A stretch of DNA of 64,000 nt from Armatimonadota bacterium (GTDB lineage: Bacteria > Armatimonadota > HRBIN16): assembly GCA_963677485.1 (NCBI GenBank), contig OY781964.1, forward strand, positions 768,001-832,000, read 5' to 3'. The position numbers and the translations under genes were made by a program. The notes under the pieces were generated by a model. That model saw only the letters and a program-made list of their open reading frames with translations. It was not told where the DNA came from and searched no databases. The stretch's first letter is position 1. The number at the start of each line of letters is the position of its first letter. Below, piece after piece: positions 3,772-48,651 of the stretch.

Positions 3772-4221
3772 TTATCCCTCGTCCTCTAAATGATCTCTCA
3801 GTTGGGCGATGTATTCCATGCGCTTCATAGCTCTGACCGATACACGGCGTTCATCCAGTGCCTGCTCAAGTTTGAGAACCACCAGCTCGTAGGTGTCTAT
3901 GCCCGGAATATTCTTCTCTACATAGTCAAAAGCACCCAACCTCATGCAGTCAACCGCATTACTGACATTGCCGTATGCCGTCAACACGATCACCTGCGTA
4001 AATAGGTCTTTGGCGACCGCCTTGGCCAGGATACGTTTACCGCTGAGCGGATCTTCCATCGACATATCCGTAATGACCACATCGTAGTTGTTGCTTTCAA
4101 TCGCTTCCTGTCCGCTCAGTTCGCCGTCAGCGACCTCTACCTCGTAGCCGTCGCGTTTTAGGCGGCGCTGTATCGCACGACGTACATCCTCTTCATCATC
4201 GATTACCAATACTCTAGCCAT
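3772..4221 (-). CDS. Single-domain response regulator (receiver plus short helical tail)
   Basis: 'VLVIDDE', 'VVITDMSM', 'VLTAYG', 'AFDYVEK'. Confidence 0.9.
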   Translation of the reverse strand: MARVLVIDDEEDVRRAIQRRLKRDGYEVEVADGELSGQEAIESNNYDVVITDMSMEDPLSGKRILAKAVAKDLFTQVIVLTAYGNVSNAVDCMRLGAFDYVEKNIPGIDTYELVVLKLEQALDERRVSVRAMKRMEYIAQLRDHLEDEG

Positions 4222-4257
4222 CAGTTTGTTCTCCTTATGTGTTTTGCGTATGACACC

Positions 4258-6048
4258 CTATTGTGAATCCTCAGGTGGCAACAGCGGCAGGTAAATCTCA
4301 AATCTGGCTCCCTCTCCGGGAACGCCATTCTCAAATATAATACCGCGATGTGCATCTATAATGCCCTTCACGATACTGAGGCCCAATCCCATACCCTTAT
4401 TGCGGCTGGTGAAGAAGGGTTGGAATATCTTCTCCTTCAACTCCTCGGGAACACCCGGCCCCCCGTCTTCCACTCGAATATGAACCCGTTTACGAATGCG
4501 GTTCAAAGCTATTACAGTTGGCACATCATGCCCATCGCACAGCTCACACATGACACTCAGCCGTCCGCCGTTGGGCTGGAAGCTGATGCTGTTTTCAATG
4601 AGCTCCCCCAACGCGCGCTTCATGCGCGCCGCATCGATGTTCATTGGCGGGATATCATCACTCAACGTGAGTACCAGTTCGATGTCGGTGCGCTTCGGAA
4701 AAGTCTCTTCTACACTTTGCCGTATCACATCGGCGATACTAACCGCTCGTCGGGCCAACTGAGTGGCCACAACAAAGTCACGAAATTCCTGCAGTATCTC
4801 TTCTAAACGTGAGACACCGCTACGCATATGCGAAACAAGATCATTCACTTCTTGCTTACTGACATCGGGTAGACTGAGCTGATATTCCAGCTCATTCAGG
4901 TCGCCCTTGATCGCAAATGTGCGGTTCCCAATCATATGCGCAGACCGAGCAGAGACTTCACCCCATGCGGCCATGCGTTCTGAGTATACCAGCTTTTGCT
5001 CGATCTGGAGCTTTTCAAGCGCGACGCCGAACTGGCTGGCGACCGAGCTCAGCAAAGCCTCATCTGTATCTGTGAAGCGGTTGTCAAACCATCGGCTGCG
5101 GCTTTTCTTGCGTACCGCCCGGATGACACCTACCACGCGGTTCACGCCAGGTACCGGCACCGCCATAAAACTGCCCAATTGCTCCACCGGCATTTCGCCA
5201 AAAAGGCCCTTGTATCGCGGGTCTTTGTTCGGTCGGGCCGTTACTATGGGCTGCCCGTTCTGTGCCACCCAACCCGTCAGCCCCTCTCCCAACTGGTAGA
5301 ACGCATCGCCTCGACGATGCTTCAAAGCGCTGGTGGCTGCCACCAAACGCAAGGCCTTCTCGCCATCATCAATGATGAATACACTGCACTCTTCAAAGCG
5401 CAGCAGGCTGGAGGTCACCTCCAATACGACATTTAGCAGCTCTTCCAACTCTTCGCAGGCACTTAACTCGTTGCCTATGCGCACAAGCGCTTGTTGCCGT
5501 GACCGTGCGGTGTGTATTTGGTAGGCCGCTTCACACATATCGGCAATAGCCGTGATGACATGCACATCGCGGGTAGTGAATGGATGCGAATGATCTGTCT
5601 CCACATTCATCACACCCCTGGTCCGACCGTAAGCATCCAGCATCGGCACCGCAATTTCGCCCACCACATCATCAAACGAGCCGAGATAATGCGGGTCTGC
5701 AGTCACATCGTCTGCGTAATATGGCTTCTGAGTGGCGGCCACATAGCCGGTAATACCTCGCCCACTCTCCTGAGCCACATCAAGGCGTTTGTGAATACGC
5801 TGGGTTGTCCAGCCATGACCGACCACATGGTGAATCACCAGCTTACCAGCATCTTCATCTACCAGCGCTAGAAAGGCGCGGTGACCACTGACCACTTTGG
5901 TGGCTTCATTGAGGGCTGTTGACATAAAGGCATTCACATCCCTCAGGGTAGTGATGCCCCTCGCCATCATTTGAAGAGTAGAGACTATCTGTGCTGTGTC
6001 GGAATCATCTATCGGTATATTCTGATCAGCCTGGCCGTTTTTGGACAT
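4258..6048 (-). CDS. Cytoplasmic GAF-GAF sensor histidine kinase
   Basis: Two GAF domains ('GITGYVA..PYYADDV..DPHY', 'GLTGWVA'), H-box 'SAHMIGN', N/G boxes 'ELIENS', 'EDGGPG', 'GMGLGL'; start taken at MSKNG after AGGAG. Confidence 0.88.
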   Translation of the reverse strand: MSKNGQADQNIPIDDSDTAQIVSTLQMMARGITTLRDVNAFMSTALNEATKVVSGHRAFLALVDEDAGKLVIHHVVGHGWTTQRIHKRLDVAQESGRGITGYVAATQKPYYADDVTADPHYLGSFDDVVGEIAVPMLDAYGRTRGVMNVETDHSHPFTTRDVHVITAIADMCEAAYQIHTARSRQQALVRIGNELSACEELEELLNVVLEVTSSLLRFEECSVFIIDDGEKALRLVAATSALKHRRGDAFYQLGEGLTGWVAQNGQPIVTARPNKDPRYKGLFGEMPVEQLGSFMAVPVPGVNRVVGVIRAVRKKSRSRWFDNRFTDTDEALLSSVASQFGVALEKLQIEQKLVYSERMAAWGEVSARSAHMIGNRTFAIKGDLNELEYQLSLPDVSKQEVNDLVSHMRSGVSRLEEILQEFRDFVVATQLARRAVSIADVIRQSVEETFPKRTDIELVLTLSDDIPPMNIDAARMKRALGELIENSISFQPNGGRLSVMCELCDGHDVPTVIALNRIRKRVHIRVEDGGPGVPEELKEKIFQPFFTSRNKGMGLGLSIVKGIIDAHRGIIFENGVPGEGARFEIYLPLLPPEDSQ

Positions 6049-6064
6049 GTTGATGATTAGACTC

Positions 6065-7945
6065 CTAGTCAGTTTTGATCGCGGCCTTGCCGTTATCTGC
6101 ATTCAAGTTGAACATGGTGCTGATGATTTTCCGCGCCACAGGACCTGCTGACGAGCCGCCGTGGCCTCCCTGCTCCACAAACACGCAGATGGCTATCTGC
6201 GGGTCATTTGCGGGAGCGTAGGCCACGATCCAGGCATGCGGTTTGATACGCGGCGGGTCCTCTGCGCTGCCTGTCTTGCCCGCAACCTGCATGTTATTAA
6301 ACTCTAAAATCTTCGCGGTACCATGCTGCCCACTCACCGCAGAAACCATGCCATGCTGTATCATCTGCCAATATTCGTCTGGCAGCTCCACCTTGCGCTG
6401 CACATGGGGTTTGGTTTCATAGACCGTCCGTTTTAGGCCATCACGCACACATTTAATGACATACGGACGCATCAGAACACCCTTATTAGCCACCACACAA
6501 GCGATTTGGGCCACCTGCAAAGGGGTGGTGCTGATATACCCCTGCCCAATGGAGCTGTTACAGGTATCGCCTGGATACCACTTTTCATGGAAGGTCTGAA
6601 GTTTCCAGTCTGGCGTTGGGATGCTGCCTTTTTTGGCACCGGGCAAGTCAATACCAGTCGGTTCACCCAGGCCAAACCCATGCGCCATACTGGCGATTTT
6701 CTCCATCCCAGTGCGCAACCCCGCCTTGTAGAAGAAAACATCACACGAACCGGCGATGGCACTATCAAGGTTCACAGCATGATGGACCGACCAGCAGCCA
6801 AAACGCCATTTACCCAGCATCAAGTATCCTGGGCAGAATGCTGAGGTACCGCCATTAATGGCCCCTGCCTTTAGAGCCGCGGCCGCTGTGACCATCTTGA
6901 AAGTAGAGCCCAGGGGATAGCGTCCCGCCAGAGCCCGGTTTTGAAGCGGGTATCGCCGATCGTTGGCGATCTGTTTCCAGGCTGCGCTCTTCATTTTACT
7001 GGCAAAGATATTGGGATCAAACCTTGGAAAACTGTTCATCGCCAGTATTTCACCCGTCTTAGGGTTGATGGCCACAACCGCACCAGCCCGATCCCCAAAT
7101 GCCGTTTCTGCCGCCCGCTGCAGCTTCTTATCTATGGTCAGCTGCACTGTACTGCCAGGAATAGGCGGCTGGTAGGCCAGTTCGCCGCGCTGCCGACCAG
7201 TGGCATCGACCTTAAGTTTTCGGCCTCCGGCGGTTCCTTGTAGATAGTTCTGTAGCCGCAACTCTATCCCGGATTTTCCGATATAGTCTTCACGGCCAAC
7301 TCCGGTCGATTCGAGATCCGCATACTCATCGGCATTCACTTTTCCGAGCGCGCCCAACACATGTGAAGCCAGCAATCCTTCCGGGTAATACCGCACGGGC
7401 TGAGTCTGCACCATCAACCCCTTCATAAACGGGCCGTTTTCCTCAATAGAGGCCACGATCTGCCTGGACGCGTCGGTCATCAGCACGACGGCGTCAAACC
7501 GCCTTCGCCAGGTTTCGACGTCACCAAGAGCCTCCGCCACTTCGGCGGTCGATAGCCCAAGAAGCTTGGCAATCCGACCGATAGTCACATCCGCCAGTTG
7601 CTTTCGAACCTGCTCTTCCGTGCGGTCAGTGGCGTTGGCTTGATCCTCAATCTCGTCAGGGCTGATCTCCAGATCCGCAGGAATCACACTAACCACAAAC
7701 TGAGGCCGACTCATCGCCAGGGTGAGGTTGTTGCGATCGACAATCAACCCTCTCGGCGCGGTTTGCCTCACAACACGGGTGTAGTTCTGCTCCGCTTCAT
7801 CCATCAGTTCTGGCCCATGAAGAACCTGCAGATACCACAACCGCGATGCGACCAGCAGGAAACCCAGTCCGGTAATCACTGCTAACAGCGTGACCGGACT
7901 GCCCTGATGCTCAGACGGATCATGGAAGTCAAAGTGATGCGTCAT
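6065..7945 (-). CDS. mrdA: Penicillin-binding protein 2 (class B)
   Basis: N-terminal TM plus 'RLWYLQV', 'APRGLIVDR', SxxK 'STFK', 'SCDVFFY', 'KTGSAE'. Confidence 0.9.
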   Translation of the reverse strand: MTHHFDFHDPSEHQGSPVTLLAVITGLGFLLVASRLWYLQVLHGPELMDEAEQNYTRVVRQTAPRGLIVDRNNLTLAMSRPQFVVSVIPADLEISPDEIEDQANATDRTEEQVRKQLADVTIGRIAKLLGLSTAEVAEALGDVETWRRRFDAVVLMTDASRQIVASIEENGPFMKGLMVQTQPVRYYPEGLLASHVLGALGKVNADEYADLESTGVGREDYIGKSGIELRLQNYLQGTAGGRKLKVDATGRQRGELAYQPPIPGSTVQLTIDKKLQRAAETAFGDRAGAVVAINPKTGEILAMNSFPRFDPNIFASKMKSAAWKQIANDRRYPLQNRALAGRYPLGSTFKMVTAAAALKAGAINGGTSAFCPGYLMLGKWRFGCWSVHHAVNLDSAIAGSCDVFFYKAGLRTGMEKIASMAHGFGLGEPTGIDLPGAKKGSIPTPDWKLQTFHEKWYPGDTCNSSIGQGYISTTPLQVAQIACVVANKGVLMRPYVIKCVRDGLKRTVYETKPHVQRKVELPDEYWQMIQHGMVSAVSGQHGTAKILEFNNMQVAGKTGSAEDPPRIKPHAWIVAYAPANDPQIAICVFVEQGGHGGSSAGPVARKIISTMFNLNADNGKAAIKTD

Positions 7946-39515: not shown

Positions 39516-40679
39516 ATGACACAGTTTTTAGGTTTTAATATGACTTCCCAAAGTCATATCAAAGGTAATGCGCAGTATGACAGGCGCACGAAGCACTTGG
39601 TCCACAGGTTGCGTCCTGGAGAGATCGCCATCATCGATCATGGCGACCTCGATGGACTGGCAGCTCAGACCCTCGTGCAGTGCCGTCCGGCGGCCGTCAT
39701 CAACCTTAGCCGCAGTATCTCTGGTCTGTATCCCAACACCGGCCCCACCATTCTGCTGGCTGCTGGGATTGCCCTGTTTGAATGCCAGCACCGTGAGCTG
39801 TTAAGTCACCTGACTCGGCCGGTAGCAGCCGAGATCACGCCCGAAAACAAGCTGCGGATCCGTGGTGTCGCTGAGGTGTTTACCCTTCAGCCCATCACTA
39901 AAGAGCTAGTCGATGAGCAACTGGCCGAAGCCCGCGAAAACCTTAAAAGCGAAATGATGAACTTCGCAAGCAACACTCTTGAGTATCTGCAAAAAGAGGC
40001 AGGGCCGCTGCTGGACCCACTGCACCTGCCTGGTGTCAAGACTGTGATGCAGAACAAGCACGTGGTGGTGGTGGTGAGAGGTTCGCGCTTTGAGGCTGAC
40101 CTGGAGGCGATCTCAGGATACATGCGTGACGTCAAGCCCGTCATCATCGCGGTAGACGGTGCCGCCGATTCGTTGATATCACGGGGCTTCAAGCCGCACA
40201 TCATACTCGGTGACATGGACAGCGTGAGTGACGAAGCGCTGCGCAGTGGTGCCGAACTGCTAACCCATCAGTATGCGAACAGCCAGAAGGCATCACCTGC
40301 ACTCCAACGCATGCAGGAACAACATTTACCTCATATCGTGTGGCGGTTTCTGGGAACCAGCGAAGACCTGGCCATGCTGCTTGCCTACGAACTCGGGGCC
40401 AAACTCATCGTGACTGTAGGCAGTCATTTCAGTATGATTGAGTTTCTTGAGAAGGGGCGTATGGGTATGTCAAGCACCTTCCTCACACGGCTGCGTGTGG
40501 GTGATCGACTGGTAGACGCCAAGGGGGTGAGCCGATTGTGGACAAGCCGCCTTCCGCGGACGGAGCTGTCGCTATTAATCGTCTCCGCCCTGGTCCCGGT
40601 CATCGCAGCATTCTGTCTATCACCATCTGGCCGACACATTATAAAATTGGTCGGTATGTGGTTCAAACTAAACTTCTAA
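39516..40679 (+). CDS. steA: SteA-like protein (thiamine pyrophosphokinase-like domain, C-terminal TM)
   Basis: 'DRRTKHL..RLRPGEIAIIDHGDLD', 'ISGLYPN.GP', 'VDGAAD', 'GDMDSV', 'GMSSTFLTRLRVG..LVDAKGVS'. Confidence 0.85.
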   Translation: MTQFLGFNMTSQSHIKGNAQYDRRTKHLVHRLRPGEIAIIDHGDLDGLAAQTLVQCRPAAVINLSRSISGLYPNTGPTILLAAGIALFECQHRELLSHLTRPVAAEITPENKLRIRGVAEVFTLQPITKELVDEQLAEARENLKSEMMNFASNTLEYLQKEAGPLLDPLHLPGVKTVMQNKHVVVVVRGSRFEADLEAISGYMRDVKPVIIAVDGAADSLISRGFKPHIILGDMDSVSDEALRSGAELLTHQYANSQKASPALQRMQEQHLPHIVWRFLGTSEDLAMLLAYELGAKLIVTVGSHFSMIEFLEKGRMGMSSTFLTRLRVGDRLVDAKGVSRLWTSRLPRTELSLLIVSALVPVIAAFCLSPSGRHIIKLVGMWFKLNF

Positions 40680-40695
40680 TAATGAGAATAAGCCG

Positions 40696-41571
40696 ATGAA
40701 TCCCGGATTACGATATCATATAGCCAGCCTGGCGGCGGTTTTTCTTGCCCTTACTGTGGGCTTGCTCATAGGTGGCCTGTTCCTCAACACCGCTCCGACC
40801 ACCACTCAGGACAAGTTGATAAACCGCATCCAAGGCGACATCGAGACACTGACAAATGAAAGTAACGCCAATAAACAGGCCCTAGAACGAAATCGAGAGT
40901 TCATAAAGGCACTGGCGCCAGCACTTCAAAACTCGCTGATGAAAACAAGAAGCGTGTCAGTGGTGATGACTGGTGACGACACCAAGGCACTCGATGAAGC
41001 CATCTCCGCTGTTCGTGAATCAGGTGCTAAACTCAATGGTGTCATCCGAATTACCGATAAATATGAAATTAAGTCGCCCCGAAACAGGCAAAACCTCATT
41101 GACAACCTGCGCTTGGCATACCCAAACCTGCCAAATGACAACCAGGCTATCATACGGTGTATCGCCAACTCGGCATTCATACCGTCGTCGTTCGATGCAA
41201 TTCGAAAAACTCTCTCAGATGCAGGCATCATCGACTTCGAAGGCAGCTTTAATGAACAAAACACGGTGATTTTACTCGTTGGCGGCAACAGCACAGACAG
41301 CGAACGTGTTGTGACGCTTGATAAGCCGATGATTAGCATTTGGAAAGCCAACAACCTAAAAGTGGCCGCCAGCGAAAGGTCCGATGCCGCTTATTCGCAC
41401 ATATCGACGTACCGTGAAAGCAAAATCGCGGTTGTGGACTGCATCGACACGTTGATTGGCCGTCTGTTATTTAACGTGATATATGATGTTGAGCCGATGG
41501 TCTACGGTATCACCGAACAGGCTGACTTGACGACACCAAAGCGTATGGACCAGGTACTCAAAGTTAAATGA
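40696..41571 (+). CDS. SteB/MctB-family protein (DUF3186)
   Basis: 'RYHIASLAAVFLALTVGLLIG', coiled coil, 'VDCIDT..G'; follows steA. Confidence 0.8.
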   Translation: MNPGLRYHIASLAAVFLALTVGLLIGGLFLNTAPTTTQDKLINRIQGDIETLTNESNANKQALERNREFIKALAPALQNSLMKTRSVSVVMTGDDTKALDEAISAVRESGAKLNGVIRITDKYEIKSPRNRQNLIDNLRLAYPNLPNDNQAIIRCIANSAFIPSSFDAIRKTLSDAGIIDFEGSFNEQNTVILLVGGNSTDSERVVTLDKPMISIWKANNLKVAASERSDAAYSHISTYRESKIAVVDCIDTLIGRLLFNVIYDVEPMVYGITEQADLTTPKRMDQVLKVK

Positions 41572-42263
41572 GCATCTTTGCCATCGTTCCGGCGCATAAC
41601 GAATCATCACATATCACCGCCACGTTGTGTGCGTTGAAGCAGTTCGTGCCGGCTGAGAACATAGTGGGCGTGGCTGACAACTGCTCAGACGACACTTTCG
41701 CGCTCATGCAGAGTGCTGGCATCCAAGCCGTTCAGCGAAATGGGAACGGCGGCAAATCCGCGGCGGTAGCGAGTGGAATGCGGGCTTGTGCTGATTTGCC
41801 GATTAGTGATAGCGACACGTTGCTGCTCTGCGATGCCGACGTGGCTGAAAGCGCGATCGAGCTTCGTGAGTTGTGCAGTGCTCTGGTGGATCAAGCCGCT
41901 CAAGCCGCCGTCGCTGTGTTTCCTTCTGCTGGAAAAGCAGCCGGGATGGGCTTCGTGGTGCGGTACTCCAAGAAAGTTTTGTTGAGGCACACAGGGCAAC
42001 AGTTCCAGGCACCGCTCAGTGGGCAACGTGCTATACAGTGGAAGTATGCCCGCAAACTCAAGGCGTTTTGCAGTTATTACGGACTTGAGGTGGGTATGAG
42101 CACCGACCTGCATATGCTGGGTGCCAACATCATTGAGGTTCCGGTTAATATGACACACCGGCACACCGGGCGCAGCCTTGCCGGGTTCCTGCACCGGGCG
42201 AAACAGGGCTACCACGCTTTTCGAGCAGCACATGGAGTCAGAGACATACCGATATGGGCTTAA
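41568..42263 (+). CDS. Glycosyltransferase family 2
   Basis: 'IVPAHNE', 'DNCSDDT', 'DAD', 'PLSGQRA', 'YGLEVGM', 'HRHTGR..GFLHRAKQ'. Confidence 0.85.
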   Translation: MSIFAIVPAHNESSHITATLCALKQFVPAENIVGVADNCSDDTFALMQSAGIQAVQRNGNGGKSAAVASGMRACADLPISDSDTLLLCDADVAESAIELRELCSALVDQAAQAAVAVFPSAGKAAGMGFVVRYSKKVLLRHTGQQFQAPLSGQRAIQWKYARKLKAFCSYYGLEVGMSTDLHMLGANIIEVPVNMTHRHTGRSLAGFLHRAKQGYHAFRAAHGVRDIPIWA

Positions 42264-43117
42264 CCAATCCGCTTCTTTACCTTCTCCTTGTCCCCTTGCT
42301 GTTGTTTTTCATCAGCAAACCACTCTTGTTAAAATACGCAAAACGCATGGGGTTACAACGCACCAATTTCCTGGGCAACCCTGTGGCATTAGGCTACGGC
42401 ATGACCATATGGCTGCTGTGCCTGGTGTTGTTTGGCACTATGGTGTGGCTTGTCGATGAAGTGCCTTTTTACCTCATGTTGCTCATCACCACCGGGTGGT
42501 ATGGGCTGCTAGGGACGATTGATGACCTGTTCGGCAAGCGTGATGGCGAACCAAAAGGGTTGAAAGGCCATTTCTCAGCGTTGTTCAAAGGAAGGATCAC
42601 CACAGGCTTGATTAAGGCCGTCGGAGGTCTGCTTGGTGCCGTCTGGCTGGGAGGCATCACCGCTCAGCACACTTGGCAGTGGCCTGTCAACACGTTGTTG
42701 ATTGCGCTGAGTGCCAACGCCATCAATCTGTTCGACCTGCGGCCAGGACGAGCCATCACCATCAGCCTTGTGGCACTCGCTGTGTGCGCGATTTTGGCAT
42801 TTCAAGAGAGCCAAATTTACCTGTTTATTGGACTGATTCTCATATGGAGTATGTGTTTCTTCTGGCGGAAGGAAGATGCGCAGGCGAAGGCGATGATGGG
42901 CGACAGCGGCAGCAACCTGCTGGGTGCCGTGATGGGCGTCTCGCTGGCTATCTGCTTGCCTGCCTGGGCATCAGTAAGCTGGCTAGTGGTGTTGATCCTG
43001 CTGCATGTCGCCGCGGAGCGCGTCTCATTTAGTCAGTTGATTGAACGCACACCATGGCTGGCGCGTATCGACAGCCTTACCGGCCTTCGGAAGCCAGCAC
43101 GAAAAACAACTCGTTAG
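42254..43117 (+). CDS. MraY/WecA-like polyprenyl-phosphate sugar-phosphate transferase (multi-TM)
   Basis: 'LLGTIDD', 'KGLKGH', 'ANAINLFDLRPGRA', 'MMGDSGSNLLG'. Confidence 0.82.
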   Translation: MGLTNPLLYLLLVPLLLFFISKPLLLKYAKRMGLQRTNFLGNPVALGYGMTIWLLCLVLFGTMVWLVDEVPFYLMLLITTGWYGLLGTIDDLFGKRDGEPKGLKGHFSALFKGRITTGLIKAVGGLLGAVWLGGITAQHTWQWPVNTLLIALSANAINLFDLRPGRAITISLVALAVCAILAFQESQIYLFIGLILIWSMCFFWRKEDAQAKAMMGDSGSNLLGAVMGVSLAICLPAWASVSWLVVLILLHVAAERVSFSQLIERTPWLARIDSLTGLRKPARKTTR

Positions 43118-43847
43118 GAAACACGAGCTCAGTAACCTCATAGTCACACTGCGACATCAACCGATGGAACTGCTCGCGGTAGTTCTCCAGCATCCCTTTG
43201 TTGCGCCCGCCCAGGCTTCTAATGGGATAACTCACCACAATGTGCCTGGCGTGGATAGAGCGCAGCAGTTGCAGCGCACCGCCCTTGCACTGCTGCTCCA
43301 TACAGGGCAGAGTCTTCAACACCAACGCCACATCAAACTGTCCAGTGGGCAGCTCGCTCAGTGCATCAGCCCAGACGCAGTTACCAGCCCAGTTTTGTGA
43401 CTGGCTCACATGGTTCACCAGGCTGACCAGTCTGCTATCAATCTCACAGCCCATGATTTCGCACTCGGAGCTTAGCCCCATCTGAACTCTGGCAAGTGGA
43501 TTCAACCCACAAGCGACATCCAATATGCGATCAGGAACTCCTGCGATGGCCCAGATAGCCGGAAAAATCTGCTCATAATACCCGAGCCGTTCATTGGTTG
43601 AGGCATGCTGTGCTAATAATCCAAGCACATCATCGGTGGATTTTGAGAGTTGGATATCGCCTTCGATATAGCTGCCGAACACCTGATGCAGTTTCCGTTT
43701 CGCCTCTTTGGTGGCCATTTTAACCGGGTATCGACACAATGCCCATGCGGCAATACGGCGCAATACGGCGGGGTAGAGAGCAGCATACTTCGTGGTGTGG
43801 CTCAACTCAACGACGAGACTCTCTACATCCTCCGGGGCACCCATCAC
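43077..43847 (-). CDS. 16S rRNA m7G1405 methyltransferase (Rmt/ArmA/Sgm family)
   Basis: 'KRKLHQVFGSY', 'HASTNERL', 'LDVACGLNPL', 'VLKTLPCMEQQ', 'VVSYPIRSLGGRNKGM..NY', 'NEL'. Confidence 0.88.
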   Translation of the reverse strand: MMGAPEDVESLVVELSHTTKYAALYPAVLRRIAAWALCRYPVKMATKEAKRKLHQVFGSYIEGDIQLSKSTDDVLGLLAQHASTNERLGYYEQIFPAIWAIAGVPDRILDVACGLNPLARVQMGLSSECEIMGCEIDSRLVSLVNHVSQSQNWAGNCVWADALSELPTGQFDVALVLKTLPCMEQQCKGGALQLLRSIHARHIVVSYPIRSLGGRNKGMLENYREQFHRLMSQCDYEVTELVFPNELFFVLASEGR

Positions 43848-44938
43848 GCTCTCAGTTCACAGATACGTGCCATCAGCCGTGTATACACCCGCAGGTTATG
43901 CATCGTGGCCAGGCGGTGGGCCACAGAGTCGTTCAGTTGGAATAGATGGTGCATGTAGGCACGGCTGTATCGACGACAACAGGGGCAGTCACAACTCTCA
44001 TCCACAGGGGATTTATCTCTGATGTATTTCGTATCTTGGATGTGCAGATAGTCGATGAAACCTCGCGAAGTGAAGTCCAGATTCGCCGGAGCACCCGGTT
44101 TATATATATACAACCGCTTGTGGCGTGCATCGCGGGTGGGCATCACACAGTCAAAAGTATCAAACCCAAATGAGGCCGCTGTCAGCGTGTTCTCAGGTGA
44201 GCCTATGCCCAAGGCGTGCCGCGGCAGCTCATCAGGGGTTATTTCGCAGAACTGCCCCACAGCGCCGACCAGCTCACCACCCGCCCCAATCGGCCAGCCG
44301 CCGTATCCGTAGCCGTCAAACCCGATCTCTTGAAGCCGTAGAGCACACTCGCGCCGAAGCTCGGGGTCGCTTCCGCCCTGCACAATGCCATACAGTAAAG
44401 GTGCCTGATGGCCCACTTTACGTATGCGGATCTGCCGGTGCCACTCTTCTTTGCAGCGCTTTGCCCATGCCACGGTCAGTTCCACACTCCGTCTTTGAGC
44501 AGGTGCATCGTCTTCTGGGTGAGTGCAAACATCCAGACAGAATACGATGTCGGCACCCAGCCGGAACTGCTTTTCGATACTTTTCTCCGGGCTAAGCATC
44601 TCTTTTTTTCCGTCCGATGCACTCTTGTAACTGAATCCGCCGCTTCCGATGGAGCCAAGTGAGGGGTTTTCTCTCAGCAACGAATAGACCTGGAACCCGC
44701 CGGAATCACACATCACAGGCGCTTGCCATCCCATAAAATCATGGATGCCACCCAGACTGCTGATGGAATTTACTCCCGGTGAGCTGCTGAGATGCAGCAG
44801 GTTGACCATGAGGGCTTTGATTCCCACACTCTCCAGATCTGCACTGTCCAGTGTGCGAACCACAGCTCGCGTGCCGTCGGGCAGAAAGGCTGGCAGGGGC
44901 AGCACACCGCTTTGCAGCAATAACTCAGTGGGCCTCAA
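43844..44938 (-). CDS. tgt: tRNA-guanine transglycosylase-family protein (divergent TGT)
   Basis: 'DSGGFQVYSL', 'LDVC', 'GIVQGG', 'FDCVMPTRDARH', Zn site 'CDCPCC...HNL'; atypical 'GGWP' in place of 'GGLSVGE'. Confidence 0.85.
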   Translation of the reverse strand: MRPTELLLQSGVLPLPAFLPDGTRAVVRTLDSADLESVGIKALMVNLLHLSSSPGVNSISSLGGIHDFMGWQAPVMCDSGGFQVYSLLRENPSLGSIGSGGFSYKSASDGKKEMLSPEKSIEKQFRLGADIVFCLDVCTHPEDDAPAQRRSVELTVAWAKRCKEEWHRQIRIRKVGHQAPLLYGIVQGGSDPELRRECALRLQEIGFDGYGYGGWPIGAGGELVGAVGQFCEITPDELPRHALGIGSPENTLTAASFGFDTFDCVMPTRDARHKRLYIYKPGAPANLDFTSRGFIDYLHIQDTKYIRDKSPVDESCDCPCCRRYSRAYMHHLFQLNDSVAHRLATMHNLRVYTRLMARICELRA

Positions 44939-45759
44939 AAGAACTCCTTTTCGTCGAATTCATCGGCATCATCAGCTTCGTCTGTTTCTCCAGATTCATC
45001 AACTTCATCTGCAAATCGATCATAATCCGGGCTGTCTATGAGCTTTTCTTCTATTTCACCATCATCAGGATCAATGAACTTCTTGTTCTTCCCGGCGATC
45101 ACAACCACAATCTCACCACGCGGAACTTCATTTCTGAAGCACTCGATCAGACCATCCAGGTTGTCCCGAGTCACGGTCTCAAACATTTTGGTCAGCTCTA
45201 GGCAAACCGCGGCGTGCCGGTTGCCCAAAGATTTGCGCGCATCTTCCAGCAACCCCAACAGCCTTCCGGGTGCTTCATACATGATGAGCGTATGCGGGCT
45301 GTTCATCTCAGCCTCTAAAAAGTGACATCGCTTGCCAGTTTTCCGCGGAGGGAAGCCCAGAAAAGTAAAGCTACTATTGGGCAATCCCGAGGCCAACAAA
45401 GCCGTGATGGTCGCACTAGGCCCTGGCAAGACCTCGATCTCATGACCACCATCGATCGCGGCCCGTATCGCCAGATATCCAGGATCGCTGATGCCCGGGC
45501 TGCCTGCATCGGAAACCAAACCCACCTTGAGACCCTGGTTCAGCAGGGTGAGTATCCCCTTAGTCGCCTGCCGTTCGTTGTGCTCATGGTAGCTAAAAAC
45601 TCTTGGGGGACGCGCGATTTCATGGCGTTTCAGAAGAATGCTGGTGTGGCGTGTGTCCTCGCATGCAAGCGCATCCAATGAGTTCAACTCACGCAAGGCG
45701 CGAAGTGTCAGATCCTCAAGGTTGCCGATTGGAGTGGCGATGACTAGTAACTTGCCCAA
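44935..45759 (-). CDS. rsmI: 16S rRNA C1402 2'-O-methyltransferase, with acidic C-terminal tail
   Basis: 'ATPIGNLEDLT.RA', 'CEDTRHT', 'SDAGSPGISDPG', 'PGPSA', 'ELTKMFE', 'RGEIVVV'. Confidence 0.93.
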   Translation of the reverse strand: MGKLLVIATPIGNLEDLTLRALRELNSLDALACEDTRHTSILLKRHEIARPPRVFSYHEHNERQATKGILTLLNQGLKVGLVSDAGSPGISDPGYLAIRAAIDGGHEIEVLPGPSATITALLASGLPNSSFTFLGFPPRKTGKRCHFLEAEMNSPHTLIMYEAPGRLLGLLEDARKSLGNRHAAVCLELTKMFETVTRDNLDGLIECFRNEVPRGEIVVVIAGKNKKFIDPDDGEIEEKLIDSPDYDRFADEVDESGETDEADDADEFDEKEFF

Positions 45760-45861
45760 TAGATTCCTCTTTTGTGGATATTCGATTGTCTGATGTCACT
45801 GTAAGATTCTACCAGTTAATGAACGAGTGGGATGTAACCGAGCATGATGGGACAGACGGAA

Positions 45862-45891
45862 GGCGGGGCTACAACGAATTGTAGCCTCGCC
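45862..45891 (-). terminator. Hairpin downstream of melA
   Basis: GCGGGGCTACAA-CGAA-TTGTAGCCTCGC; weak U-tract. Confidence 0.5.
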
Positions 45892-45901
45892 GTGGTACCC
45901 G

Positions 45902-47203
45902 CTAGATGAGCGGCTTCAGTGGGATCAAGTCGCCGTGCTCTGCCAGCAGGTCATCGACCATGGCCCAGATTTCGTCCATCGTGAGCTCAGCCTTGGTGTG
46001 GGGATCAAGCATGGCGGCATGGTAGACCAGGTCGCGGTTGCCCGTCAAAGCGGCCTCCACCGTACACGCTTGCACCGCTATGTTAGTGCTGATATAGCTG
46101 GCCAACTGCACGGGCAGGTCACCGATCACGGTCGGCTGCAGCCCGTTCTTGTCCACCAATACCGGCACCTCGACACTGCAGCCTGGCATCAGGTTGGTGA
46201 TCAAGCCATTGTTTGGCACGTTGCCGTAGATCACGCGCGGGATACCAGTCTCCATAGAGTGGATGATCAGCGAGCCGTATTCTGCACTGCGATGCACTGT
46301 GATGGGGTCGTCAGATTCAAACTCCACACGCATCTTTTCCCATTCCGCATTCTGACTTTCGCAGCGACGCAGATACTCATCGATCGGTACATTGAAGCGT
46401 TCGATCAACTCTGGGCAGTCCCGACGGATAAAGTAAGGAGTATATTCCGCGTGGTGTTCACTGGATTCGGTCACGTAATAACCCAGCCGCATCATCATCT
46501 CAAACCGCACTCGGTCATGGTCAGGCACCTTGCCGTCGGCATAGAGTTTGCGCAAAGCCGGATACAGGTCCTGGCCGTTGTGCTGGAAAGTCAGATAAAA
46601 CGCCATGTGGTTGATGCCGGCGCAGATGTAGTTCACCTCATCGCCGGGAATACCCAGCAGATGAGCCAGCCCATGCGCTGATCCTTGAACACTGTGGCAA
46701 AGCCCCACACCCTTCACACCGGTCGCCTTCATGGCGGCCCAGGTGTTCATAGCCATCGGGTTAGTGTAATTGAGTAAAGTGCTTCCCGGGGCCAACTGCT
46801 TCATTTCGTTGCAGAAGTCCACCATCACAGGGATGGTGCGCAGTGCCCGCATGATACCACCGATGCCGAGGGTATCACCGATGGTTTGCTTCAAGCCATA
46901 CCGACTGGGTATCTCAAAGTCTGTGACAGTAGCGGGCTTATACCCGCCCACTTGAATGGTGTTAATAACATAGTTCGTATCGGCGATGGCCTCTTGCCTG
47001 TTGGTGGTCGCGGTGATTTTCGGGTTGGCCCCTACCGCTTTGGCCACCTTCTCAGCCACGCGTTTGGCGGTATGCAGCCGCGCCTCATCGATGTCCATTA
47101 AGGCGATTTCCACCTCTTTCAGCTCGTCAAAGCTGAGGATGTCGCCTAAAAGATTACGGGTGAACACGACGCTGCCTGCGCCGATCAATGTGATTTTCGC
47201 CAT
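45902..47203 (-). CDS. melA: NAD+-dependent alpha-galactosidase (GH4)
   Basis: 'IGAGSVVF', 'QTIGDTLGIGG', 'NYTNPM', 'GLCHSVQ', 'AGINHM', 'TESSEH'. Confidence 0.92.
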   Translation of the reverse strand: MAKITLIGAGSVVFTRNLLGDILSFDELKEVEIALMDIDEARLHTAKRVAEKVAKAVGANPKITATTNRQEAIADTNYVINTIQVGGYKPATVTDFEIPSRYGLKQTIGDTLGIGGIMRALRTIPVMVDFCNEMKQLAPGSTLLNYTNPMAMNTWAAMKATGVKGVGLCHSVQGSAHGLAHLLGIPGDEVNYICAGINHMAFYLTFQHNGQDLYPALRKLYADGKVPDHDRVRFEMMMRLGYYVTESSEHHAEYTPYFIRRDCPELIERFNVPIDEYLRRCESQNAEWEKMRVEFESDDPITVHRSAEYGSLIIHSMETGIPRVIYGNVPNNGLITNLMPGCSVEVPVLVDKNGLQPTVIGDLPVQLASYISTNIAVQACTVEAALTGNRDLVYHAAMLDPHTKAELTMDEIWAMVDDLLAEHGDLIPLKPLI

Positions 47204-47379
47204 GGTGCCTGACCTCTTGTGTATGAATCTCCATTCTATTATATTGCATATGCCCTTAAGCCCATCTATCGCTGTGTATCGTCATATATCGGCTGCGCCG
47301 AATAATGCGGAATGGTCTCATCTTGACTTGGTGTGCTCTATCAGTCAAACTGAAATAGGAAAGGTGGTCCTAAAACACT

Positions 47380-48651
47380 GTGTTGCACCTGATCACTGTC
47401 GGATTAAGCCATCATACAGCACCGCTGATGTTGCGCGAACAGTTCTCTTTTGAGGGCTCCCGTTTAGATACCGTGCTGCTGGCGTTGATGCGGGCAGGAG
47501 CACGTGAGGCCGTGGTTTTATCCACCTGTAACCGAACAGAGATCACAGTCCGTGGTTTGGCCGATCAAGAGCTGATACGAATACTGAGTGCCCAAACCGA
47601 CATCGCACTTAGCATCTTTACTCCACACCTCTACATCTATAAAGCCGAAGAAGCGGTCTCCCACCTGTTTCATGTGGCGGCCGGTCTCGATTCGCTCGTA
47701 TTGGGCGAACATGAGATCCTGGGACAGGTGCGTAGAGCCTGGGATACGGCGAAGAAAATAGGCTGCAGCGGCCGGCTGATGGATGCACTTTTCCGATCAG
47801 CCTTGACCTTAGGCAAGAATGTCAGGTCTAGCACTGAGCTTGGCCAACATGCGATATCGATAGGTTCGCTCGCGTTGCGAAAAGCGATTGACGAGTTTCC
47901 TGACTTCTGGCAACGCAACATCATGGTGGTCGGTGCCGGGAAAATGGGCCAACGGCTGATCAACGAGCTTGTCGACCGCAGGAAAGAATCGGGCACTTTT
48001 ACCCCAATCACCGTCCTCACAAGAAGCCCCAAACAGGCGAAATTGAAGGCCGACTTTCCCGGAGTACGCCTGCTTGAGACGGCGAAACTATACGAACTTC
48101 TACCAGAAGCCGATGTGATTTTCACCTGCACCGATTCGCTTTCCCCACTCCTGGATTGCGCCTCGCTTCTACCGCTTACAGCAAAAAGACACGGACGGCC
48201 GCTGTTATTGGTGGACCTCGGGGTGCCGCGAAACATCAGCCCCTGCGTCCGTAAGGCCGATTTCGTGCACCTCTTCGACTTGGAAGACTTGAATGCGCTC
48301 TCCGAAGCTCATAGTGCTGCACGTGCCGAATCCATTCCGTCGGCAAAACGCCTTCTAGAAGAGCATATGGCCGTGTTTATCGAACGCTGGAGACTGCGTG
48401 ATAATATCGAGACTATCAAGTCACTGAAGGCTGATGTGGAACGGATTCGGCAGCAACAACTGGAGTGGGCTACACCCAAAATGGGTGAGTTATCACCATC
48501 GCAGCAACAGATTCTAGACCAAATGTCACGAAGGTTGGTACAGCAAATGCTTCACAAGCCCCTCTCAGCTCTTAACCAGTCTGACGGAAACACCGCCTTA
48601 ATCGAGGCCTTCGTGCGCATCTTCGGACTAGAAAAAGAAGGCGATTCATAG
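47380..48651 (+). CDS. hemA: Glutamyl-tRNA reductase
   Basis: 'SHHTAP..LRE', 'STCNRTE', 'GLDSLVLGE.EILGQV', 'GAGKMG', 'DLGVPRNI'. Confidence 0.93.
   Translation: MLHLITVGLSHHTAPLMLREQFSFEGSRLDTVLLALMRAGAREAVVLSTCNRTEITVRGLADQELIRILSAQTDIALSIFTPHLYIYKAEEAVSHLFHVAAGLDSLVLGEHEILGQVRRAWDTAKKIGCSGRLMDALFRSALTLGKNVRSSTELGQHAISIGSLALRKAIDEFPDFWQRNIMVVGAGKMGQRLINELVDRRKESGTFTPITVLTRSPKQAKLKADFPGVRLLETAKLYELLPEADVIFTCTDSLSPLLDCASLLPLTAKRHGRPLLLVDLGVPRNISPCVRKADFVHLFDLEDLNALSEAHSAARAESIPSAKRLLEEHMAVFIERWRLRDNIETIKSLKADVERIRQQQLEWATPKMGELSPSQQQILDQMSRRLVQQMLHKPLSALNQSDGNTALIEAFVRIFGLEKEGDS

Follow-up and report, generated by a model that had tools for sequence, protein, structure and literature searches.

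A paralogue of tRNA-guanine transglycosylase (TGT), here designated TGT*, was found to be a near-obligate partner of FmrO/Rmt-family 16S rRNA (guanine1405-N7) methyltransferases (Rmt), and our findings support the view that the two form an uncharacterised module. Judging from its residues and its partners, TGT* is probably (we would put this near 55%) a base-exchange enzyme that works with Rmt on helix 44 of 16S rRNA, with m7G1405 as the probable substrate. The Rmt/ArmA enzymes, which form m7G1405 on assembled 30S subunits and thereby confer high-level resistance to 4,6-disubstituted aminoglycosides, are a source of pan-aminoglycoside resistance among Gram-negative bacteria in the clinic. Our results show that in their natural hosts they are paired with a dedicated TGT paralogue whose catalytic residues are intact.

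The module is represented by three minus-strand ORFs at positions 43077-45759 of the window, by which we mean the whole 64,000-nucleotide stretch of Armatimonadota DNA that was analysed. The first gene of the operon, rsmI (44935-45759; TIGR00096 and PF00590 matches), codes for a 274-aa 16S rRNA C1402 2'-O-methyltransferase, and it is followed by the gene for the 364-aa, Rmt-associated TGT* (43844-44938; PF01702 match) and by rmt (43077-43847; PF07091 match), which codes for a 256-aa homologue of the G1405 methyltransferases. At the rsmI/TGT* junction, which reads TTTTGAGG on the minus strand, the TTG start of TGT* overlaps the TGA stop of rsmI in the 4-nt sequence TTGA (44935-44938, minus strand). 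The GTG start of rmt overlaps the TGA stop of TGT* in the same manner, through GTGA (43844-43847, minus strand) at a junction that reads GCGTGATGG on that strand, with an ATG one codon after the GTG serving as an alternative start for rmt. Both overlaps were read from the sequence and agree with the three-gene operon described in an earlier, sequence-only reading of this DNA; from this arrangement, the genes are predicted to be translationally coupled. The earlier reading had also reported no adjacent insertion sequence, and indeed the neighbours scanned in 39516-47203 include no transposase. A profile scan identifies these neighbours as SteA, MctB-like, GT2, GT4 and GH4, beyond which lie ORFs resembling hemA/C/D (assigned by eye), and the GC content around the region is uniform (0.53-0.56).

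Profile scores are consistent with the assignment of the three products to the RsmI, TGT and Rmt families, with the TGT and Rmt members scoring below their equivalog cut-offs. The rsmI product reaches 199 bits against TIGR00096, above the equivalog cut-off of 167.9, and is the single match in the source genome. It is thus the sole, housekeeping copy and not an extra paralogue. The window's rmt, also present as a single copy, matches PF07091 with 142 bits (3e-41), its residues 20-247 covering profile positions 4-252 of 255 with the N-terminal domain included. As expected for the Rmt/ArmA/Sgm (FmrO) family, its product aligns full-length with the structures of RmtB (3frh; 3.3e-36, 3frh residues 5-249 of 253), Sgm (3lcu) and RmtC (8ghu). 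However, it is a divergent member that shares approximately 32% identity with the acquired Rmt/ArmA enzymes and scores 208 bits against NF000466, below the NCBI Rmt equivalog cut-off of 250. Unlike those enzymes, it is chromosomal and shares an operon with the housekeeping rsmI, with no mobile element in the vicinity.

TGT* matches PF01702 with about 320 bits (3.1e-95) and TIGR00430 with 301 bits, slightly below the equivalog cut-off of 306.75. A canonical tgt is located elsewhere in the source genome (530 bits against PF01702, versus 319 for TGT*), and a separate canonical tgt was found in all six TGT*-bearing genomes examined, the source genome included (454-564 bits, versus 302-320 bits for TGT*). 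TGT* is therefore not the housekeeping enzyme, and unlike bacterial Tgt it is accompanied by Rmt rather than by Que genes. In a tree of 85 TGTs, ten Rmt-linked sequences and three sister sequences separate from the 72 canonical sequences with an SH-aLRT value of 100, the TGT* clade lies on a long branch, and the plasmid TGTs beside rmt genes fall inside this clade. TGT* constitutes a large, distinct clade with thousands of database members, all of which are labelled as ordinary Tgt. We define the clade by a GGWP pocket motif, an Asp at the position of Val45, the lack of Glu235 and placement within the clade; the window TGT* exhibits all of these features, together with co-occurrence with Rmt and a separate canonical tgt.

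The sequence-only reading proposed a functional tie between the paralogue and the rRNA methylases. Beyond the separate canonical tgt, this proposal is borne out by conserved adjacency, by co-occurrence, by co-divergence and by fusion proteins. Rmt adjoins TGT* in the six best genome matches, which come from relatives of the window's organism, Latescibacterota, Clostridia and Brocadiaceae. The metagenomic TGT* loci are arranged in at least 12 gene orders; of 80 such loci, 70 contain Rmt, as do 40 of the 43 with flanks of 900 bp or more on each side. A search that began from Rmt located TGT* directly upstream in 23 of 29 Rmt loci. When five genomes with unlinked genes were searched, TGT* was present elsewhere in the genome. 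Linkage is therefore conserved through many rearrangements, and a sole tgt with unconserved linkage, which the earlier reading named as evidence against the tie, is not what was observed. At some loci there is an additional Rmt paralogue, which comes from its own subclade.

Within a sample of 401 genomes from the phylum, which are interrelated such that independent gains and losses number far fewer than 401, TGT* is intact in 33 and fragmentary in 3 of the 36 genomes with Rmt, and it was found in none of the 365 genomes lacking Rmt. The window's family exhibits the same pattern (5/5 genomes with Rmt versus 0/13 without). Moreover, the two proteins co-diverge, with a Mantel r of 0.78 that was attained by none of 2000 permutations. 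Natural fusions comprise six TGT*-linker-Rmt proteins, one RsmH-TGT* protein and three Rmt-RsmI proteins, and the recurrent partners of TGT*, namely Rmt, RsmI and RsmH, are each 30S-acting enzymes of helix 44. In two Clostridia genomes, the rsmH and rsmI genes of the module are the sole copies. Methylation of G1405 and of C1402 interfere with each other, according to PMC12406665, and the recruitment and fusion of RsmI and RsmH fit this interference in a manner that suggests native hosts coordinate both steps.

TGT* shares with the bacterial Tgt enzymes of Z. mobilis and E. coli (PDB 1ozm and 1enu), which replace G34 of GUN tRNAs with preQ1, the PF01702 fold, the nucleophile, the acid/base Asp and the Zn site. 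Residue mapping equates Asp78, Asp136 and Asp263 with Z. mobilis residues 102, 156 and 280, and the Zn ligands C316, C318, C321 and H347 with Cys318, Cys320, Cys323 and His349. Across 65 TGT* sequences, D78, D136, C138, G213-G214, D263, R269, R272, C316, C321 and H347 are invariant (these map to Z. mobilis D102, D156, C158, G229-G230, D280, R286, R289 and the Zn site), and conservation is at least 90% for the Gln203 equivalent and for Cys318, the fourth Zn ligand. The guanine-face contacts Asp156, Gln203 and Gly230 are thus kept, as are the residues of the homodimer interface.

The substrate pocket differs from that of bacterial Tgt. Trp215-Pro216 of TGT* replaces Leu231-Ala232, with both residues invariant in 65/65 sequences, whereas canonical enzymes carry L at position 231 in 63/72 and S or A at position 232 in 71/72. 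Ala219 replaces Glu235, which is present in 99% of canonical TGTs, and Asp21 replaces Val45 (Asp in 65/65 TGT* sequences, V in 68/72 canonical ones). In addition, Met260 is changed to Leu and Leu68 to Val or Met, and there are two insertions relative to Z. mobilis Tgt. The Trp and Asp of the pocket presumably resemble those of cap-binding proteins. In Tgt, the 231/232 peptide NH contacts guanine N7 via a water molecule and Glu235 buffers the flip of this peptide, as described in PMC3660597. This peptide switch with its Glu buffer, which lets guanine leave and preQ1 enter, is absent from TGT*, where Pro216 has no amide NH. Pro232 is also found in two of the three members of the sister clade, which provides the sole TGT of approximately 0.8 Mb genomes without Rmt, and therefore this residue alone does not imply an m7G pocket. 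On the basis of these residues, TGT* is predicted to be a catalytically competent base-exchange enzyme with an altered substrate pocket.

With these characteristics in mind, we propose that the operon may modify the top of helix 44 in the decoding centre of 16S rRNA, where RsmI would form Cm1402 and Rmt would form m7G1405, and that TGT*, jointly with Rmt, would target the 30S subunit and not tRNA. Rmt would dock on the 30S subunit, flip out G1405 and methylate its N7, with TGT* supplied in matching amounts via the overlapping stop and start codons or, in the fusions, as part of one polypeptide. The flipped, positively charged m7G, now an activated leaving group, would then enter a TGT* pocket that has lost the N7-directed amide and the Glu235 buffer and has acquired a Trp and an Asp, both of them invariant. 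Asp263 (Z. mobilis Asp280) would attack C1', 7-methylguanine would leave, and a second base would be joined. Candidates for the incoming base are preQ1, preQ0 or another 7-deazaguanine, which would leave a stable mark, or guanine, which would reset the site. In this scheme, the use of rRNA as substrate, the choice of position 1405 and the sequence of events are inferred, whereas the operon, the clade, its catalytic residues and changed pocket, the partnership with Rmt and the fusions are observed. The reset variant fits the fusions badly, because a single polypeptide that both writes and erases a mark would achieve nothing; QueF was found in two of five TGT*-bearing genomes (the other three being MAGs), and thus an obligate preQ1 donor is not favoured. 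The boldest form of the proposal, in which TGT* is the first ribosomal-RNA transglycosylase and swaps Rmt-activated m7G1405 for another base such as preQ1, is offered as a less likely possibility.

If helix 44 is the target, TGT* would become the first enzyme known to exchange bases in ribosomal RNA, and the product attributed to the native module would need revision. A swap of m7G would amount to methylation-activated base exchange, a way of modifying rRNA that would be new; were preQ1 or another 7-deazaguanine to enter, the decoding centre would bear a chemically stable mark with a positive charge. The end product of the TGT* modules, among them those beside rmtD, rmtG and rmtB2, would then not be m7G.

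The sequence-only reading had offered two mechanisms, base exchange in rRNA or a tuning of tRNA decoding, and the evidence leans towards the former. TGT* could still be a tRNA enzyme that inserts another base, or acts on another set of tRNAs or another position, and so fits decoding to ribosomes with m7G1405; it would be inherited with Rmt because it offsets the cost of the methylation, a compensating role that would also account for its dependence on Rmt. Its closest characterised relatives are tRNA-guanine transglycosylases (best match Z. mobilis Tgt, 8.6e-70), and the sister clade, as the sole TGT of small genomes, is presumably tRNA-directed. Two points count against an rRNA substrate: every relative with a solved structure and a characterised function works on tRNA, and TGT* retains features of the tRNA enzyme, namely Arg286/Arg289, the Zn subdomain and the residues at the homodimer interface. 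Nevertheless, we judge this alternative unlikely, given that canonical tgt already serves G34 in six of six genomes, that all three substrate sub-pockets of TGT* differ from those of the tRNA enzyme, and that the 80 + 29 neighbourhoods contain no recurrent gene for tRNA modification. The fusions point in the same direction, since TGT* is joined to the 30S-acting Rmt and RsmH whereas canonical-type TGTs (434-450 bits) are joined to QueA or Methyltransf_30 instead. Furthermore, the most widespread acquired Rmt lineages are without TGT*, and thus any such compensation would bring little measurable benefit in Enterobacterales.

Another Rmt-linked target, such as a different 16S guanine, an mRNA, or RNA that contains m7G and is free or damaged, is improbable given that nothing points to a specific one and that all partners are helix-44 enzymes, even though the pocket still appears guanine-shaped (D156, Q203 and G230 are kept) and the second Rmt paralogue hints at more than one target. 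The superfamily has also shifted substrates: DpdA and archaeal ArcTGT, which act on DNA and on tRNA G15, provide a precedent for a TGT fold that retains base-exchange chemistry with a new nucleic-acid target and donor base, and weak matches to their profiles (76 bits against a cut-off of 350 for ArcTGT, 20 against 200 for DpdA) reflect this breadth, but TGT* resembles bacterial Tgt far more closely than it does these enzymes, and its partners are not theirs. Translational coupling and fusions would equally fit a non-catalytic scaffold or 30S-docking subunit for Rmt, for which QTRT2, the inactive subunit of eukaryotic TGT and itself a partner protein with the TGT fold, is a precedent with chains among the PDB matches. 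We consider this role decidedly improbable: in 65/65 sequences there is no variation at Asp280, Asp102, Asp156 and Gly230 or at three of the four Zn ligands, which is unexpected for a scaffold, Rmt works without TGT* on at least 1,584 plasmid records, and, unlike QTRT2, which matches only over the C-terminal 60 residues (3e-12), TGT* keeps all catalytic residues. Inherited synteny or hitch-hiking without a functional link was considered because IS91/ISCR-type elements can carry neighbours, as with the corA and metallophosphoesterase genes that travel with rmtB2. This explanation is very improbable, being contradicted by a pair held together in at least 12 gene orders, by the co-occurrence of unlinked copies, by the presence of TGT* in 0/365 genomes without Rmt, and by the fusion proteins.

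The plasmid-borne forms bear on the reading that we prefer, joint action of TGT* and Rmt on helix 44. Rmt-family genes are found on 1,596 plasmid records and TGT* on only 12. This asymmetry indicates that TGT* depends on Rmt whereas Rmt can do without TGT*, which would follow if the product of Rmt is the substrate of TGT*. That Rmt confers resistance unaided on most plasmids counts against the joint reading. Neither the clade-wide partnership nor the altered pocket was found in the literature that we searched, nor was any account of a separate TGT clade, a modified active site, an obligatory tie to Rmt or fusion proteins. The adjacency on plasmids, with a tgt or 'putative tRNA ribosyltransferase' gene upstream of rmtG/rmtD, is already published, in PMC3904158 and in PMC9311965, which cites Passarelli-Araujo 2019. 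In PMC3904158 and PMC9311965, tgt is treated as a neighbouring tRNA gene.

Several TGT* hosts are labelled in record titles as Clostridia, Christensenellales or Brocadiaceae, which we take to be anaerobes. Anaerobes take up aminoglycosides poorly, and together these two points would argue for a physiological role beyond drug resistance.

The tgt-like gene that the sequence-only reading placed in mobilised rmtD and rmtG regions is indeed present there, and the same holds for rmtB2. Clinical plasmids carry a unit of rsmH, tgt*, rmtG and a truncated rsmI, and TGT* also travels with rmtD1 and rmtB2. On pKP13f, rsmH (4054-4995), tgt (4992-6083) and rmtG (6076-6870) are followed by an rsmI fragment, an array with the same gene set and equally tight overlaps as the TGT* modules. 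A four-gene rsmH-tgt*-rmt-rsmI arrangement in uncultured Clostridia matches this plasmid rmtG unit, and thus provides a handle on the origin of the acquired methylases.

Three minus-strand genes occupy positions 43077-45759 of the window. The first is rsmI (44935-45759), which encodes the 16S rRNA C1402 2'-O-methyltransferase and matches TIGR00096 at 199 bits against a cut-off of 167.9. It is followed by the gene for an Rmt-associated paralogue of tRNA-guanine transglycosylase, here called TGT* (43844-44938), which scores 320 bits with PF01702 and 301 bits with the Tgt equivalog TIGR00430, slightly below the cut-off of 306.75. The third is rmt (43077-43847), whose product is an FmrO/Rmt-family homologue of 16S rRNA m7G1405 methyltransferases (PF07091, 142 bits; NF000466, 208 bits, below the cut-off of 250). 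The two 4-nt start/stop overlaps described in the sequence-only reading agree with the ORF coordinates and with both minus-strand junctions: the TTG start of TGT* lies over the rsmI TGA stop in TTTTGAGG, and the GTG start of rmt lies over the TGT* TGA stop in GCGTGATGG. The chromosomal setting noted in that reading also holds, as base composition is uniform over the region and Pfam assigns the flanking genes to ordinary chromosomal functions (SteA, an MctB-like protein, a GH4 hydrolase and two glycosyltransferases), with ORFs beyond them that were named by eye and are presumably hemA/C/D. An Rfam search of window positions 42800-47500 at E up to 1 returned no riboswitch or other RNA family, and an RNA-family scan of 13 related loci found one tRNA and nothing else. 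The promoter and terminator scan was near chance (6 versus 3.5 expected, and 6 versus 3.1 expected). A plus-strand cluster of overlapping or closely spaced genes (39516-43117; steA, the MctB-like gene, a GT2 and an MraY-like GT4) converges with the 3' end of the operon, such that the GT4 ORF, ending at 43117, and the rmt ORF, ending at 43077, overlap by about 40 nt.

The 5.22 Mb, single-contig genome carries a second, canonical tgt gene that scores 530 bits versus 319 for TGT*, and therefore TGT* is an extra paralogue. Only one rsmI is present, so the operon gene is the housekeeping copy; of the two separate copies whose existence had been raised earlier, that of tgt is found elsewhere in the genome and that of rsmI is not. 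There is likewise a single FmrO-family gene, and the one rsmH is located elsewhere. In five further TGT*-bearing genomes a canonical tgt is likewise present, scoring 454-564 bits against 302-318 bits for TGT*. QueF, taken as a proxy for the preQ1 donor, was present in two of five TGT*-bearing genomes, the remaining three being MAGs.

TGT* occurs only alongside Rmt. Among 80 loci on one-genome-per-species contigs, the six best TGT* matches (82-45% identity) are each followed immediately by Rmt, and their record titles assign them to relatives of the window's organism, Latescibacterota, Clostridia, Christensenellales and Brocadiaceae; at E 1e-5, no Rmt was detected at the next three loci, which form a sister clade, or at the remaining 71. 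The neighbourhood survey of metagenomic TGT* loci bore out the anticipated co-occurrence, with Rmt in 70 and RsmI in 45 of 80, and RsmH in some. Where at least 900 bp was available on both sides, Rmt was present at 40 of 43 loci; the three without it (L117, L139 and L140) have unrelated neighbours on the contigs that carry them. The pair is found in at least 12 arrangements across the 80 loci, most commonly rsmI-tgt*-rmt (23), tgt*-rmt (21), tgt*-rmt-rsmI (5) and rmt-tgt* (4), followed by rmt-rsmI-tgt*, rsmI-rmt-tgt* and rsmH-tgt*-rmt-rsmI (3 each).

The same association is evident when the search begins from Rmt. Of 401 genomes sampled from the phylum of the window, 36 contain PF07091. Twenty-nine Rmt loci were retrieved from other genomes, and at 23 of them TGT* lies immediately upstream; among these 23, one is interrupted by a contig end and another is split. 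One further locus was too short to judge, and five lacked TGT* within 1.5 kb, although all five of these genomes encode it elsewhere. With a threshold set to leave out canonical tgt, intact TGT* was found in 33 of the 401 genomes, all of them Rmt-positive; it is fragmentary in the remaining three Rmt-positive genomes and was found in none of the 365 that lack Rmt. Within the window's family, the counts are five of five Rmt-positive and none of 13 Rmt-negative genomes. The 401 genomes are mutually related, and hence independent events are far fewer than these counts; nevertheless, the pair is distributed patchily over at least seven families. Pairwise distances among 65 paired TGT* and Rmt sequences co-vary (Mantel r = 0.78, matched by none of 2000 permutations). 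At one locus (L195, G393:C42), rmt and tgt* are each in two pieces, which could reflect joint decay or an assembly error.

TGT* is translationally coupled to Rmt or, in some organisms, fused to it. A search confined to long proteins yielded five different TGT+FmrO fusions, 641-663 aa long and with 50-54% identity to the window's TGT*, in which TGT* is followed by a linker of about 15-25 residues and a full Rmt, and in which the GGWP pocket and catalytic residues are present. One RsmH+TGT protein (47% identity) is a singleton and a possible frameshift artefact. TGTs fused to QueA or Methyltransf_30 have 35-38% identity to the window's TGT*. Pfam scores follow the same division, in that TGT halves joined to Rmt or RsmH are TGT*-like (261-305 bits) and those joined to QueA or Methyltransf_30 are canonical-Tgt-like (434-450 bits). 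The canonical-type fusions (P0007-P0012) comprise one protein with QueA and five with Methyltransf_30, one of them named from Spirochaetota; QueA and the MnmC-type methyltransferase are enzymes of the tRNA wobble position. Searching from the Rmt side brought a further TGT+FmrO fusion, together with three fusions of FmrO to RsmI. The latter (P0014, P0015 and P0016), in which FmrO precedes TP_methylase, derive from the cultured actinomycetes Actinoallomurus and Dactylosporangium and are annotated as RsmI only. Taken with the linkage, the 401-genome pattern and the co-divergence, the fusions lend good support to the earlier proposal that the TGT paralogue is functionally tied to the rRNA methylases.

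In two Clostridia genomes the rsmH and rsmI of the module, by which we mean TGT* and Rmt with their frequent companions, are the sole copies, and in a third this is true of rsmI. As summarised in PMC12406665, ArmA prevents RsmI from acting at C1402, and other resistance methylases do the same to RsmF at C1407. If these methylations have to be coordinated, the co-expression and fusion of C1402 enzymes with Rmt would suit that requirement. At the rsmI loci of the window's family (L208-L225), the encoded proteins share 61-91% identity with the window's RsmI in Rmt-positive genera but no more than 39-43% in the Rmt-negative genus. In a quick tree that lacks solo RsmI from other phyla, the window's protein groups with module-linked RsmIs, which cluster together. 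A module-specific RsmI lineage is at most suggested by such sequence relationships.

The earlier statement that mobilised rmtD and rmtG regions carry a tgt-like gene proved correct, and can be extended to rmtB2. Twelve plasmid records hold TGTs with 45-47% identity to TGT*, true tgt genes reaching no more than 38.7%; one record was inspected from each of three groups, and the other nine share the same hit statistics. Plasmid pKP13f carries rsmH (4054-4995), tgt (4992-6083) and rmtG (6076-6870), then a short ORF that matches RsmI residues 1-70 beside an IS91-like element. A Klebsiella plasmid carries tgt and rmtD1, the latter followed at once by a 127-aa ORF (L087, 6824-7207) that overlaps the rmtD1 stop and has no Pfam match or similarity to RsmI. 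A Providencia plasmid carries tgt, a metallophosphoesterase gene and rmtB2. This rmtB2 unit (L086, 2778-8357) retains a fuller donor context than usual: besides the metallophosphoesterase gene, which separates tgt* from rmtB2, it includes corA and a fragment of a cation:proton antiporter gene. In the TGT and Rmt trees, the plasmid-encoded TGTs and Rmts nest with Clostridia-type four-gene modules. A tgt*-rmt pair on a Latescibacterota chromosome (L007, 2215-7313) has Mutator-family transposase genes on both sides, plus a DDE_3 fragment, an arrangement that makes the pair look like a mobile unit within this environmental genome. Two papers describe rmtG as lying downstream of a 'putative tRNA ribosyltransferase' (PMC3904158) and as belonging to one operon with rsmH, tgt and 'rsmL' (PMC9311965, citing a 2019 paper). 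Our search of openly accessible papers returned nothing on the function of rmt-linked tgt, a dedicated clade or the fusions.

In a quick IQ-TREE search with 85 TGTs, 10 Rmt-linked and three sister sequences are split from 72 canonical proteins (SH-aLRT 100, long branches), the window genome's own canonical Tgt falling among the 72. The Rmt-linked proteins fall together to one side of a branch supported at 86. This is a large clade: of 8,000 scored clusters, 2,693 fall at E 1e-90 or below, and they carry the label Tgt in MAGs that bear the names Latescibacteria, Armatimonadota, Aminicenantes, Coatesbacteria and Ignavibacteria.

Alignment to Zymomonas mobilis Tgt equates D78, D136 and D263 with the catalytic residues Asp102, Asp156 and Asp280, C138 with Cys158, and Q187 with Gln203, and gives C316/C318/C321/H347 as Zn ligands; the placing of Trp215, Pro216 and Asp21 derives from the same alignment. 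Changed positions are W215 (Leu231), P216 (Ala232), I217 (Val233) and A219 (Glu235). A set of 65 TGT* sequences shows no variation in the catalytic Asp residues, in three of the Zn ligands, in Arg286/Arg289 or in the Trp-Pro pair, and the fourth ligand, C318, is conserved in at least 90%. Clade-specific differences from the 72 canonical proteins are Val45 to Asp, Lys52 to Arg, Leu68 to Val/Met, Ala227 to Gly, Leu231 to Trp, Ser/Ala232 to Pro, loss of Glu235 and Met260 to Leu. GGWP counts in the metagenomic set are biased because one of two fetch patterns contained this motif; in the set found through Rmt, it is present in 22 of 22 TGTs on contigs spanning the region. According to PMC3660597, the Leu231/Ala232 peptide of Tgt flips between two states, turning its NH out to contact N7 via water with guanine bound and presenting its C=O with preQ1 bound, and is buffered in both by Glu235. 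TGT*, which has Pro at 232 and lacks Glu235, could not operate such a switch. Judged by its residues, TGT* is catalytically intact, with its chemistry retained and all three substrate sub-pockets altered.

Given that Rmt mostly travels without TGT* on plasmids (1,596 Rmt-family records versus 12), the direction of dependence is from TGT* to Rmt. The recurrent companions of TGT* are 30S helix-44 enzymes throughout. We regard TGT* as a variant within a known enzyme class that probably acts on a new substrate, which we infer to be m7G1405 of 16S rRNA. TGT* would act after Rmt on the same site, taking m7G1405 and putting another base in its place; the methylated base would be a good leaving group and, lacking a lone pair at N7, would offer nothing for the lost amide to contact.

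Alternatively, TGT* might still be a tRNA enzyme, as is every characterised relative, and PMC11703503 indicates that Q34 matters under aminoglycoside stress. The sister clade (L011, 4001-5044; L012, 4001-5017; L013, 4001-5032) is also in keeping with a tRNA substrate, since its members are the sole TGTs of three genomes of about 0.8 Mb without Rmt. These genes lie among unrelated housekeeping genes, and their products have Phe in place of C158 and Trp, Leu or Tyr at 231. Two of the three have Pro232, which likewise speaks for a tRNA role and weakens the idea that this residue marks an m7G pocket. We consider a tRNA role less likely, and prefer m7G1405 as the candidate substrate.

Some modules contain a second Rmt paralogue (L093, 2118-2927; L095, 2365-3174; L105, 2347-3156; L142, 5930-6739; L156, 2388-3197). 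These copies form their own subclade, separate from the copy that adjoins TGT*, and their presence hints at a second methylation target.
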